From Escherichia coli (GTDB taxonomy: Bacteria; Pseudomonadota; Gammaproteobacteria; Enterobacterales; Enterobacteriaceae), in NCBI RefSeq assembly GCF_003334355.1, contig NZ_QOWP01000009.1: a DNA stretch of 64,000 nt. One strand, written 5' to 3'. The position numbers were made by a program, and so were the translations under genes. Below the pieces are notes generated by a model. The model did no database searches and was not told where the DNA came from. It saw nothing but the letters and a program-made list of their open reading frames with translations. Below, piece after piece: positions 30,183 through 63,170 of the stretch (position 1 is the first letter of the stretch; each line of letters starts with the position of its first letter).

Positions 30183-31253
30183 ATGGCAGGACTGAAATTA
30201 CAGGCAGTAACCAAAAGCTGGGATGGTAAAACCCAGGTCATTAAACCGCTGACCCTTGATGTGGCGGATGGCGAATTTATCGTGATGGTCGGGCCGTCTG
30301 GCTGCGGGAAATCGACGCTGCTGCGCATGGTTGCCGGGCTGGAGCGGGTGACAGAAGGCGATATCTGGATCAACGACCAGCGCGTGACTGAAATGGAGCC
30401 AAAAGATCGCGGGATTGCGATGGTGTTCCAGAACTACGCGCTTTATCCGCATATGAGTGTCGAAGAAAACATGGCGTGGGGGCTGAAAATTCGCGGCATG
30501 GGCAAGCAGCAAATTGCCGAGCGCGTTAAAGAAGCGGCGCGCATTCTGGAGCTGGACGGTCTGCTCAAACGTCGCCCGCGCGAGCTTTCCGGCGGTCAGC
30601 GCCAGCGTGTGGCGATGGGCCGCGCGATTGTGCGCGATCCGGCGGTGTTCCTGTTTGATGAGCCGCTCTCTAACCTCGATGCCAAGCTGCGCGTGCAGAT
30701 GCGTCTTGAACTGCAACAGTTGCACCGTCGCCTGAAAACGACTTCACTCTACGTTACTCACGATCAGGTTGAAGCGATGACGCTCGCCCAGCGAGTAATG
30801 GTGATGAACGGCGGCGTTGCCGAACAGATTGGCACACCAGTTGAAGTCTACGAAAAGCCCGCCAGCCTGTTTGTAGCGAGTTTTATCGGCAGTCCGGCGA
30901 TGAATCTGCTGACAGGCCGCGTGAATAACGAAGGCACGCATTTCGAACTGGACGGCGGTATTGAGCTGCCGCTAAACGGTGGCTACCGTCAGTATGCCGG
31001 GCGTAAAATGACTCTCGGCATTCGCCCGGAACATATTGCGCTAAGCTCGCAGGCAGAAGGCGGCGTACCGCTGGTGATGGACACGCTGGAGATCCTCGGC
31101 GCAGATAACCTGGCGCACGGACGCTGGGGCGAGCAGAAGCTGGTGGTGCGACTGGCGCATCAGGAGCGCCCGACGGCAGGCAGCACGCTGTGGCTGCATC
31201 TGGCGGAAAATCAGCTGCATCTTTTTGATGGTGAAACAGGACAACGAGTATGA
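30183..31253 (+). CDS. ugpC: G3P ABC transporter ATP-binding protein UgpC
   Basis: ORF track 30144..31253; start at ATG 30183 ([12 protein letters not shown]...) gives 356 aa; Walker [18 protein letters not shown] signature. Confidence 0.93.
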
Positions 31254-31993
31254 GTAACTGGCCTTATCCCCGCATCGTCGCTCATCGTGGCGGCGGTAAG
31301 CTGGCCCCGGAAAACACCCTGGCGGCAATCGACGTCGGGGCAAAATACGGTCATAAGATGATCGAATTTGACGCGAAGTTATCGAAAGATGGCGAGATCT
31401 TCCTGCTCCATGACGACAATCTCGAACGCACCAGCAACGGCTGGGGCGTCGCGGGTGAACTGAACTGGCAGGATTTACTGCGCGTGGATGCGGGCAGTTG
31501 GTACAGCAAAGCGTTTAAAGGTGAGCCGCTGCCGTTGCTTTCGCAGGTGGCGGAACGCTGTCGTGAACACGGGATGATGGCGAATATCGAAATCAAACCC
31601 ACCACTGGCACTGGACCATTAACGGGCAAAATGGTGGCGCTGGCGGCACGCCAACTGTGGGCCGGTATGACGCCGCCGCTGCTGTCATCGTTTGAGATTG
31701 ATGCTTTAGAAGCCGCACAACAGGCAGTACCGGAACTGCCGCGCGGTTTGTTGCTGGATGAGTGGCGCGACGACTGGCGCGAACTGACCGCGCGGCTGGG
31801 CTGCGTCTCTATTCATCTCAATCATAAGTTACTCGATAAAGTGCGAGTGATGCAGTTGAAAGACGCCGGACTGCGGATTCTGGTTTATACCGTCAATAAA
31901 CCCCAGCGCGCGGCAGAGTTGCTGCGCTGGGGCGTGGATTGCATCTGTACCGATGCGATTGACGTGATTGGTCCGAACTTTACGGCCCAATAG
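31250..31993 (+). CDS. ugpQ: Glycerophosphodiester phosphodiesterase UgpQ
   Basis: 247 aa ORF; GDPD family pattern; last gene of the ugp operon. Confidence 0.93.
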
Positions 31994-32420
31994 TTTTCAA
32001 CGGAATGTCAGGCTGCGGCGTGCTGGGCTGATTCAGCATGTCGCCGTTTCTCCTCTCCGGCAGCATATGCTGCTGATTCAACGAACTATCCGGATTACGG
32101 TTGCTGTTTAACATCCCGCCGTTGGTGTTGGGCAGCATTTGCTGCCGGGCGGGATTTCGCTCCCCCGGCTGTGACTGCAACACCCGCTGAGAATTATTGT
32201 TTATCTGGTTTTCTAAATGCTGCTGTTGCAACTGAGTTTGCGTTTTCAGTTGCTGATTCAGCATCCCTTTTTGCTGGATTTGCTGCGTTTGCATCTGGGT
32301 TTGCATCCGCTGCTGGCTGGGTATCTGATACCCCGGCTGGTTAGGGTTGTTCAGAGTATTAATGGGCTGTGCAAAGCCGACAAACGGCAGGAGTGCCGTA
32401 AGAATCAGAAGTCGTTTCAT
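31980..32420 (-). CDS. yhhA: Secreted Gln-rich protein YhhA (DUF2756)
   Basis: 146 aa ORF with signal peptide and Q-rich low-complexity repeats; 3' end overlaps ugpQ by 14 bp. Confidence 0.8.
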
Positions 32421-37569: not shown

Positions 37570-37660
37570 GCGATCAGGAAGACCCTCGCGGAGAACCTGA
37601 AAGCACGACATTGCTCACATTGCTTCCAGTATTACTTAGCCAGCCGGGTGCTGGCTTTTT
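37570..37660 (+). ncRNA. ryhB: Iron-responsive small RNA RyhB
   Basis: GCGATCAGGAAGACCCTCGCGGAGAACCTGAAAGCACGACATTGCTCACATTGCTTCCAGTATTACTTAGCCAGCCGGGTGCTGGCTTTTTTTTT matches the RyhB sequence as I recall it; ends in hairpin GCCAGC-CGGGT-GCTGGC plus a T9 tract; lies between yhhY and yhhX. Confidence 0.9.
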
Positions 37661-37780
37661 TTTTGATCTTTCGTTCTCAATTTATCCACGGGAGTGCTTG
37701 TGTTCGTTATGCGCACTCCAGTAGGAACCACGTCCGCTTTGCGCTAAGGTGTAAATAACCACCTTAAAAAGGACGAAATC

Positions 37781-54566: not shown

Positions 54567-56083
54567 ATGGAAAGAATAATGCAAAACAGAAAATGGATTT
54601 TGACCTCGCTGGTAATGACTTTTTTCGGCATCCCCATTCTGGCGCAGTTTTTGGCGGCGGTTATTGCCATGCTGGGTGTCGGACTTGCCGGTATTATTGA
54701 AGTTTGTAATATCTTTATCACGCCAACAATTTACCTTCTGCTCAACGTCTTTATGCTGACGCTGGGGGCGATAATAATATTTTTCTCTGGTCGCGTGTGG
54801 GCCGGTGATAGCGCGCCAGAAAACAGAGAAATAGCCGTCTGGCGGCAATGCTTTTTTCTCTTACCCGCGCTATTAACCCTGGTTGGCTGGATAATCACGC
54901 TACATCTGGCAGATTATCAATTTCGCCAGATGGGAGCTGGTTGGTTGGCAAACCTTATGCTTCCCTGGTTGGCGTTTTTTTAGTCTCATTAGTGGGTGGT
55001 GAGTACTGGTGGATGGTCATTATTCCCGTTGGGGCGCATATCAGTTTTTCGCTGGGATACGCCTGGCCGACCAGATATCCTTTATCCGGCACGTCCGGAC
55101 TACGTTGCCGTAACTTACTCCTGTTTCTACTTCTCTTACTTGGTATTGTCGCCGGGTATCAGGCCCATTTATATAAGCAGCAAAATCCTGGTGTCGGTGT
55201 ACGCGAAAATATTGATATCTGGGCCTGGCGACCCGATAAACTCAATAATCGACTGACGCCGCTGCGTGGCAAACCGCAAATTCAGTTTAGGCAAAACTGG
55301 CCGCGAATCGATGGCGCCACGGCTGCGTACCCAATTTATGCTTCTGCATTTTATGCATTAAGTGTAATACCAGAGGATTTTCACGTTTGGGATTATCTGG
55401 AAAACTCTCGTACGCCAGAAGCATATAACAAAATCGTTAAGGGCGATGCTGATATTATTTTCGTGGCGCAACCTTCCGGTGGGCAAAAAAAACGTGCAAA
55501 GGAATCTGGTGTCACTTTGCTGTACACCCCCTTTGCCCGTGAAGCATTCGTTTTCATCGTCAATGCGGATAATCCGGTTAATTCCCTGACTGAACAACAG
55601 GTGCGTGACATTTTCAGTGGTGCAATTACCAATTGGCGTGCTGTTGGCGGTAACGATCAGGAGATCCAGACCTGGCAGCGCCCGGAAGACTCTGGCAGCC
55701 AGACAGTGATGCAATCACAGGTCATGAAAAATGTCCGCATGATCTCGCCGCAGGAAACGAAAGTGGCAAGCGTGATGGAGGGAATGATTAAAGTCGTTGC
55801 CGAATACCGTAATACAAACAACGCAATAGGCTATACCTTCCGCTATTACGCGACGCAAATGAATGCTGATAAAAATATAAAATTGCTAGCGATTAACGGT
55901 ATTACACCGACGGCGGAAAACATTCGCAACGGCAAATATGCGTACATCGTCGATGCATTTATGGTGACGAGAGAAAATACAACGTCAGAAACACAAAAAC
56001 TGGTCGAATGGTTTTTAACGCCGCAGGGGCAGAGTCTGGTAGAAGATGTGGGATATGTGCCGCTGTATCCAACAATGGAATAA
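54567..56083 (+). pseudogene. Membrane-anchored PstS-like periplasmic-binding-domain protein, apparently disrupted by a +1 frameshift at a T7 tract (yzgL-like locus)
   Basis: Frame A ORF 54567..54983 (multi-TM) ends at TAG inside a T7 run (54975..54981); frame B ORF 54848..56083 continues with TM-like segments and a C-terminal PBP/PstS-like domain (DSGSQT..AIGYTFRYY..YVPLY). One extra T would fuse them into a single ~505-aa ORF. TATAAT at 54544..54549. Confidence 0.5.
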
Positions 56084-60831: not shown

Positions 60832-61590
60832 ATGAAACAAACACAACGTCACAACGGTATTATCGAACTGGTTAAACAGCAGGGTTATGTCAGTACCGAA
60901 GAGCTGGTAGAGCATTTCTCCGTCAGCCCGCAGACTATTCGCCGCGACCTCAATGAGCTGGCGGAGCAAAACCTGATCCTGCGCCATCATGGCGGTGCGG
61001 CGCTGCCTTCCAGTTCGGTTAACACGCCGTGGCACGATCGCAAGGCCACCCAGACCGAAGAAAAAGAGCGCATCGCCCGCAAAGTGGCGGAGCAAATCCC
61101 CAATGGCTCGACGCTGTTTATCGATATCGGCACCACGCCGGAAGCGGTAGCGCACGCACTGCTCAATCACAGCAATTTGCGCATTGTCACCAACAATCTC
61201 AACGTTGCTAACACGTTGATGGTAAAAGAAGATTTTCGCATCATTCTCGCCGGTGGCGAATTACGCAGCCGCGATGGCGGGATCATTGGCGAAGCGACGC
61301 TCGATTTTATCTCCCAGTTCCGCCTTGATTTCGGCATTCTGGGGATAAGCGGCATCGATAGCGACGGCTCGCTGCTGGAGTTCGATTACCACGAAGTTCG
61401 CACCAAACGCGCCATTATTGAGAACTCGCGCCACGTTATGCTGGTTGTCGATCACTCGAAATTTGGCCGTAACGCGATGGTCAATATGGGCAGCATCAGC
61501 ATGGTAGATGCCGTCTACACCGACGCCCAGCCGCCAGTAAGCGTGATGCAGGTGCTGACGGACCACCATATTCAACTGGAGCTGTGCTGA
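60832..61590 (+). CDS. glpR: Glycerol-3-phosphate regulon repressor GlpR (DeoR family)
   Basis: 252 aa ORF with N-terminal DeoR HTH (ELVEHFSVSPQTIRRDLNEL). Confidence 0.93.
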   Translation: MKQTQRHNGIIELVKQQGYVSTEELVEHFSVSPQTIRRDLNELAEQNLILRHHGGAALPSSSVNTPWHDRKATQTEEKERIARKVAEQIPNGSTLFIDIGTTPEAVAHALLNHSNLRIVTNNLNVANTLMVKEDFRIILAGGELRSRDGGIIGEATLDFISQFRLDFGILGISGIDSDGSLLEFDYHEVRTKRAIIENSRHVMLVVDHSKFGRNAMVNMGSISMVDAVYTDAQPPVSVMQVLTDHHIQLELC

Positions 61591-63170
61591 TCCTGCAATG
61601 CTTCCCAGGTCAGACCAAAACGCGCCAGGTATTTGCGTAGCCGATCCGCGTCATTGACGCTGGCTTTGCCCTGGCGCGAAACATCAAAAAGCTGTCGTCC
61701 GGCAGCAGAAAGCGACTTTGCCTGGCGGCAGATAGCGATAACGTGTTCCAGTTGCATACGGTCGAAGAGATCGATGTTTTCTGCCTCTGCGCCCAGCAGT
61801 TGCGTAAGCGCGGAGGGACGGCTCTCCTGCCAGTTATAGCGCAGACGGTTTATCTCATCTTCAACCACGTCCAGAGTGATGCGTCCGCTAGTGGCAAAGG
61901 TTGCCATCCGCGTGACGCTGGCAGAAAGCTCGCGAAAGTTACCGCGCCATGTCGCCTGAGGAGATGTTGCAAAGGCCAGCCAGGCACGCCGCGCTTCGGT
62001 GTTAAAACGCACGCTGTCGCCGGTGAGTGAGGCGTGGCGCTCCACTTCATAATCCAGGTTAGGTTCAATATCTTCCTGGCGCTGGCGTAGCCCCGGCAGG
62101 GTGAAGGTCCAGAGATTGATCCGCGCGTACAGATCTTCGCGGAATTTGCCTTCGGCAACCAGCTGGCGCAAATCGCGCACCGTTCCGGCGATAAGCTGAA
62201 AATCACTGCTCACCTGGCGATCGCTGCCAAACGGGTAAAAGGTTTTCTCTTCAATGGCTTTTAGCAGCATTGCTTGTTCGTCTGCGCCCAGTTCGCCAAT
62301 CTCATCAAGAAACAACATTCCGCCGTTGGCGCTGCGTAATAAACCTTCACGAGATTCCCGCGCCCCGGTAAACGCGCCTTTTACATGACCAAACAGCGTC
62401 GACATGGCGGTATCGCCGCGCAGGGTGGCGCAGTTCACTTCCACAAACGCGCCGCTAAACTGACGCCGCGCCTGTTTTAACTCGAAGATGCGTCGCGCCA
62501 GAAATGACTTGCCCGCGCCGGTTGGACCGTTAAGCAGAATCGGCGCGCGGGATTTGATCGCCACTTTTTCGATCTGCTCAATCATGCGGTTGAAGTGGGG
62601 GTTACGCGTGGCAATGCCGGACTTAAGAAAATCAAGCGTTTGCTGGCGTTCCTCGGCAAAGCGGCTGGCGATGGCGTTATAACGGCTTAAATCGAGATCG
62701 ATAATCGTCACTTCACCTGCGCCGCGCGGCTGTTCTTTTTTGCGCGGAGGTGAAGATTGTATCAGCCGGGCGGGCAGGTAACGCGCTTCCGCCAGCAGAA
62801 ACCAGCAAATCTGCGCGACGTGGGTGCCGGTGGTAATGTGAATTAAATAGTCTTCTTTTTCTGGCTGAAACTCGTAACCACGGGCGAAATCATGCAGGCA
62901 AGCGTAAACCTCTTCGAAATCCCACGGGTTATGCAGTTCAATCTCAACGCTCACCACTTCTGTTTCTGGCGAAACGCTGGCGATATCGCGTTTAAGCGTT
63001 TCAAATAGCGAGCGCGAGCGGGCGTCATGCAATAATTCCAGTCGATCGATGACCAACGATTCTTGCTGGCATAAACAGAGTGTCGGAAGCCATTTCGACC
63101 AGCGCTGACTGCCGCGCCCGGCATAATCCAGCACGGTACCGACAAAGCCAAAAGCCACTGTTTTACGCAT
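61572..63170 (-). CDS. rtcR: Sigma54-dependent transcriptional activator RtcR
   Basis: 532 aa ORF with AAA+ bEBP core (GPTGAGKS Walker A, GAFTGA sigma54-contact motif); divergent from rtcB. Confidence 0.93.

Follow-up and report, generated by a model that had tools for sequence, protein, structure and literature searches.

Overlapping ends of the convergent glpR/rtcR and ugpQ/yhhA genes in Escherichia coli as probable by-products of tight gene packing

Convergent genes that share nucleotides at their stop codons raise the question of where their transcripts end, and whether the shared interval has a role of its own. We examined two such junctions in a 64-kb stretch of Escherichia coli DNA (hereafter the window). 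The glpR gene (60832..61590, + strand) is an intact CDS of 252 aa with a TGA stop at 61588-61590 in the ORF list, the raw sequence and RefSeq, and it faces rtcR (61572..63170, - strand), which encodes the 532-aa sigma-54-dependent activator of rtcBA. They overlap by 19 nt (61572..61590), which code for the end of GlpR (QLELC and stop) on one strand and for the RtcR tail (QHSSS and stop) on the other, with third codon positions opposite each other. In the second pair, ugpQ (31250..31993, + strand, 247 aa, stop TAG), the last gene of ugpBAECQ, overlaps yhhA (31980..32420, - strand, 146 aa, DUF2756) by 14 nt (31980..31993), where UgpQ ends in TAQ and YhhA in TIGP. The initial annotation had reported the two overlaps, and both proved exact to the base in the ORF lists, the raw sequence, RefSeq and MG1655. 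The MG1655 RefSeq coordinates give the same overlaps (rtcR 3558268..3559866 and glpR 3559848..3560605; yhhA 3586943..3587383 and ugpQ 3587370..3588113), as does the RefSeq/PGAP annotation of the near-identical strain 214-4 (NZ_CP025840). The window aligns with this strain over its full length at 99.5-99.9% identity, and the 601-nt queries at both junctions are 100% identical to it. Strain 214-4 carries one IS66-family insertion (ISEc43, about 2.5 kb) that splits a PstS-family gene and is missing from the window at ~54929-54936.

The four proteins were compared with curated NCBIfam equivalog profiles, and their scores with the family cut-offs. GlpR matches its 252-position profile over residues 1-252 (553 bits, cut-off 331), RtcR matches positions 1-529 of 530 with residues 1-527 of 532 (848 bits, cut-off 650), UgpQ matches positions 4-250 of 251 with residues 1-246 (458 bits, cut-off 264), and YhhA matches positions 1-145 of 145 with residues 1-146 (265 bits, cut-off 136). 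Since these equivalog matches run end to end and lie far above the cut-offs, the frames and stops of all four genes are real. As the two stop codons fix a convergent 3′ overlap, the choice of start codon cannot alter it. Removal of the overlaps by other start or stop choices is excluded, the stops being set by frames that the NCBIfam matches validate. Both pairs are convergent overlapping protein-coding genes, with genuine ORFs on opposite strands and common 3′ nucleotides.

Neither overlap is out of the ordinary in this genome. Convergent genes meet at nine places in the window, at spacings of 3, 101, 2, 198, -14, 37, 56, 215 and -19 nt, so that four of the nine have a spacing of 3 nt or less, and the two overlaps are no excess over chance expectation. 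The yhhS/dcrB junction has a 3-nt gap (window 8834/8838) and the yhhM/yhhL junction a 2-nt gap (14099/14102). In the E. coli genome, 58 convergent overlaps have been counted, and a model of stop-codon mutation accounts for convergent overlaps (Lillo & Krakauer 2007, PMC2174442). Our two pairs are plain instances of this tail-to-tail class, from which they show no material difference: each is a short 3′-3′ overlap of two real genes (19 nt in phase 123:213 for glpR/rtcR, 14 nt in phase 123:132 for ugpQ/yhhA), for which an origin by stop-codon loss and extension into the neighbour, and terminators within the partner CDS, are possible as in the rest of the class. Both overlaps are already annotated and standard in E. 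coli K-12, and the class has been surveyed repeatedly. A literature search on rtcR, glpR and their overlap returned nothing specific.

We then compared the junctions between species. The spacing of ugpQ and yhhA ranges from -17 to +24 nt across the enterobacteria: it is -14 in E. coli, -4 in Salmonella, Yokenella and Kosakonia, -17 in Citrobacter amalonaticus and Enterobacter, +11 in Scandinavium, and +24 or +23 in Klebsiella-type loci. UgpQ is conserved as far as IGPxF and its tail is variable after that, and YhhA tails vary too. It is the tight convergent layout that is kept, and not the overlap.

For glpR, 80 species-representative loci were compared. Among them, rtcR adjoins glpR in few lineages only, namely Escherichia spp., K. 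oxytoca/spallanzanii, Intestinirhabdus and Superficieibacter. The spacing is -19 in Escherichia spp. and K. oxytoca/spallanzanii, -35 in Intestinirhabdus, where the RtcR tail is frameshifted, and -4 in Superficieibacter. In most Enterobacteriaceae, rtcR does not lie at glpR, and malT is the convergent neighbour at a spacing of -4 to about 200 nt. The GlpR C-terminus QLELC and its stop are kept at all the compared loci. The conservation of RtcR stops at about RFGLTWE and the tail beyond it varies; the E. coli tail QDQHSSS is the antisense reading of the last codons of glpR to the first stop. Together, the two junctions carry the signature of stop-codon mutation: RtcR, UgpQ and YhhA have tails that differ from genus to genus, and the spacings at both junctions together range from -35 to +24 nt.

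With no intergenic space, each mRNA must run into the partner gene, and hence the 3′ regions of the paired transcripts are mutually antisense. The initial annotation had suggested such antisense pairing, and published data bear it out in kind, since RNA of the glpR strand reaches a Rho region antisense to rtcR. In DirectRNA-seq of MG1655 with and without bicyclomycin, a Rho termination region classed as ‘antisense rtcR’ was mapped on the glpR strand at MG1655 3559514 (-) (Adams et al. 2021, PMC7815308, Supplementary file 2). Its upstream/downstream coverage was 154/29 without bicyclomycin and 153/256 with it (Rho score 8.9, p = 2.7e-27), so read-through of this Rho-dependent glpEGR terminator rises under the drug in the published MG1655 data. 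Transferred to the window, the position is ~61924 on the + strand, 334 nt past the glpR stop, and we give it as a region (61900..61950), which is coarse because the measure uses 800-nt windows. Many of the regions in the part of Supplementary file 2 considered here are also classed as ‘antisense’, so that the rtcR-antisense region appears typical of these. As glpR is a frameshifted pseudogene in MG1655 and intact in the window, the Rho data may not transfer exactly to strains with an intact gene; the early loss of translation in the MG1655 glpR could shift the action of Rho.

The glpR-strand RNA at 61560-61720 is untranslated and antisense to rtcR, and its C/G ratio on the + strand is 1.1-1.2, a slight form of the C>G bias that a rut site should show. 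It can fold into a stem-loop without a U-tract at 61621..61678 (+ strand), 31-88 nt past the glpR stop and within the rtcR CDS. Rho-dependent transcripts have been described as ending in a protective, stable stem-loop that lacks a U-tract and is closely followed by rut sites (Dar & Sorek 2018, PMC6061677). The glpR strand resembles these transcripts in having such a stem-loop shortly beyond the stop and then a bicyclomycin-sensitive region (Adams et al. 2021) that lies antisense to the convergent rtcR, and differs in that its stem-loop is predicted and its Rho data were obtained in MG1655, whose glpR is a pseudogene. We infer that the structure is a candidate protective 3′ stem-loop of the Rho-terminated transcript. 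It is conserved within Escherichia and only partly in Klebsiella and Superficieibacter.

On the yhhA strand, a candidate intrinsic terminator lies in the ugpQ CDS at 31895..31933 (- strand), 47-85 nt past the yhhA stop. It combines a 10-bp G+C-rich stem (CCCCAGCGC.../...GCGCUGGGG; z = -4.3) with the sequence UUUAUU, an imperfect U-tract that is degraded in other genera to UUGAUU, GUUGUU or UUCAUU. The stem was found in nine enterobacterial species. It is dictated in large part by the conserved UgpQ residues KPQR...LRWG, whose codons supply most of it with their first and second positions. Covariation in the hairpin across nine genera did not rise above shuffled controls (six of the 10 stem pairs are invariant, with one compensatory change), and synonymous sites in its codons are not unusually conserved (of the 12 invariant-residue codons in and around the hairpin, just one is the same in every species, against 8.7% over the whole gene). 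On the opposite strand, the ugp-operon RNA has a predicted hairpin of 12-13 bp followed by CGUUUCUCCU within the yhhA CDS (32015..32054, + strand), 22-61 nt past the ugpQ stop, which is a candidate weak terminator or 3′ stabilising hairpin.

To compare these structures with what the host proteins impose, codons were resampled synonymously with the host protein held fixed. The glpR-strand structure in rtcR has a native MFE of -33.8 kcal/mol (resampled -17.2 +/- 4.0; 0.07% of the resampled sequences as stable), that of the yhhA strand in ugpQ -24.0 kcal/mol (-13.0 +/- 3.9; 1.2%) and that of the ugp strand in yhhA -21.6 kcal/mol (-13.8 +/- 3.3; 1.3%). In a follow-up scan of every antisense window of each host CDS, with no prior selection, the hairpins ranked first for excess stability in rtcR (1/128 windows), ugpQ (1/78) and yhhA (1/44), where two other windows nearly tie with the top one. 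For the rtcR-strand RNA within glpR, the stop-proximal window ranks fourth, and the best one is found 216-284 nt downstream of the rtcR stop. This most excess-stable structure antisense to glpR (61288-61380, - strand; z about -4 against synonymous resampling) could mark the 3′ end of the rtcR transcript. The top window lies just past the stop in three of the four cases, for which a rough estimate gives a chance of the order of 10^-3. Because the hairpins had already been seen before the scan, this stop-proximal enrichment is suggestive only. The signature that these embedded hairpins, just past three of the four stops, leave at synonymous sites is the sole point of this analysis that is even mildly new.

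A consensus terminator scan returned counts no higher than shuffled sequences (4 against 2.5 +/- 1.6, and 3 against 1.7 +/- 1.3), and it missed the yhhA hairpin because the outer loop exceeds the limit of the tool. No inverted repeat within 40 nt was found at 61450-61720, around the glpR/rtcR junction. When the whole window was scanned against Rfam, nothing appeared at either junction; the only match is the small RNA RyhB at 37599-37663 (+ strand, 83 bits). The Term-seq tables of Adams et al. 2021 (PMC7815308) list no 3′ end at either junction, and none at MG1655 35874xx, the position of the yhhA U-tract, where low expression could explain the absence. The TERMITe supplements mention none of the four genes. 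A bidirectional intrinsic terminator is also absent, there being no intergenic DNA and no single palindrome between the stops. In the work of Ju et al. 2019, as described in bioRxiv 10.1101/2022.10.23.513370, bidirectional terminators likewise serve convergent pairs with little space, and their hairpins are proposed to position polymerase pausing and collisions. Unlike those terminators, our junctions have no common palindrome, and each direction has its own predicted hairpin within the partner CDS. The initial annotation had concluded that the overlaps leave no room for separate terminators. This does not hold: the published Rho region and the three predicted hairpins sit within the partner CDS, and for 21 of the 58 overlaps of this kind in E. 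coli, rho-independent terminators had already been reported within the partner gene (PMC2174442).

Taken together, we consider with a probability of roughly 85% that both overlaps arose as ordinary by-products of the tight packing of convergent genes, whose transcripts have their 3′ ends inside the partner gene. In each pair the conserved protein cores end before the overlap, and the variable C-terminal tails would extend to the first in-frame stop that happens to lie antisense to the 3′ end of the neighbour, a run-on that would correspond to the stop-codon-mutation origin described for convergent overlaps. The 19- and 14-nt intervals would then hold no dedicated element, and transcription would pass beyond them instead of stopping there. 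In the published MG1655 data, the glpEGR mRNA runs ~330 nt antisense into rtcR, where Rho terminates the untranslated RNA, and it would probably then be trimmed back to the stem-loop at 61621-61678. The yhhA mRNA would meet the predicted G+C-rich hairpin and U-rich tract in the ugpQ codons (31933->31895), and the ugp operon mRNA the predicted hairpin in the yhhA codons (32015-32054). The paired mRNAs would in this way be complementary over tens to hundreds of nucleotides, like those of more than 100 other convergent pairs in E. coli.

Such complementarity could have a function, and the two pairs could be convergent excludons, in which induction of one gene (ugpBAECQ under phosphate starvation, for example, or glpEGR) represses the partner through colliding RNA polymerases and/or cleavage of the sense-antisense duplex by RNase III. 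The published MG1655 map of 165 convergent excludons includes yhhA-ugpQ (ExcludonFinder 2025, PMC12288877), which upholds the antisense 3′ overlap proposed for the second pair, and it also includes yhhL-yhhM and dcrB-yhhS, both in the window; rtcR-glpR is not on this list, which argues against the idea for the first pair. Published data thus place overlapping transcription units in vivo at yhhA-ugpQ and in the glpR-to-rtcR direction, where transcription goes antisense into rtcR until Rho halts it. A p19-captured pair of ~21-nt sense and antisense RNAs (93 and 125 reads) has been reported within glpR (Huang et al. 2020, PMC7373196), so that there is some antisense transcription across this gene. 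The pair maps approximately to window ~61125-61150, ~445 nt upstream of the glpR stop, and the antisense RNA may stem from rtcR read-through or from an internal promoter. It is the one hint of RNase III processing or mutually exclusive expression. The conservation of the tight junction across enterobacteria would also fit an excludon, but the overlap of the coding sequences varies and is missing in Klebsiella and Scandinavium, most relatives have no rtcR beside glpR, and read counts are low (154 reads per 800 nt). Anticorrelated expression of either pair was not found in published data. Our pairs share with convergent excludons (Toledo-Arana & Lasa 2020, PMC7154746; ExcludonFinder 2025, PMC12288877) opposite-strand neighbours and overlapping transcription units; mutual exclusion and RNase III dependence are excludon features, whereas here there is transcript overlap alone. 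As overlapping transcripts are common at convergent pairs, an overlap alone is weak evidence of regulation, and we regard functional excludons at these junctions as unlikely.

A more specific version of this idea is that the hairpins past the stops and the antisense 3′ extensions form a cross-regulatory link, in which ugp silences yhhA and glpEGR read-through damps rtcR, which we judge to be quite improbable. If it were true, yhhA would fall silent when Pho or cAMP induces ugp transcription, the threshold of Rtc RNA repair would be tied to glycerol metabolism through the damping of rtcR by glpEGR read-through, and the rtcR remnant of rtc-deleted E. coli would be retained as the 3′ UTR and terminator of glpEGR.

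These remnants also bear on the proposal that the overlap has been selected as a physical coupling, with common 3′ ends that guard against deletion or hold the pair syntenic. The junction DNA was found in 5425 of 5426 complete E. coli genomes, and 4858 match the body of rtcR (window 62100-63170). About 567 genomes have therefore lost the rtcR body but still contain the junction together with no less than 310 nt from the 3′ end of rtcR, which speaks for coupling, and one MAG retains a 19-aa RtcR remnant abutting glpR. However, the two E. coli deletions examined look alike and may stem from a single event, no rtcR remnant follows glpR in most Enterobacteriaceae, and the piece that is kept may equally persist because it contains the glpEGR 3′ UTR and its Rho terminator. 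In strain AVS0754 (locus L004, 1773-2171), a 399-nt rtcR 3′ remnant (window 61572-61970) is fused to an rtcA fragment, followed by malT, and it covers both the glpR overlap and the mapped Rho region. In E. coli ETEC1701 (locus L007, 1033-3158), a deletion at the glpR/rtcR junction has left glpR a pseudogene that lacks its C-terminus and has given rtcR a new 3′ end. With the junction lost and both genes cut short by this deletion, the junction cannot be called indispensable, and selection for coupling has in our view very little chance of being the explanation.

There is next to no likelihood of an annotation artefact, in which one ORF of each pair would have a wrong frame or end and no true coding overlap would exist, since, even though YhhA is small, Q-rich, of low complexity and of unknown function and the RtcR tail falls outside its family profile match, all four proteins fit curated models from end to end, their stop codons are fixed by frame, and the same ORFs occur with the same neighbours in at least nine genera.

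In itself, the finding that the two overlaps are probably by-products of tight packing matters little, as the overlaps are known and their class is well described. What it corrects is the intuition that overlapping convergent genes lack terminators: they have them, and the signals for the 3′ ends (Rho regions and hairpins) are written in the CDS of the partner. Hence, deleting or engineering rtcR, glpR, ugpQ or yhhA also costs the partner gene its 3′ UTR and its terminator, and changes the codons of its C-terminus.
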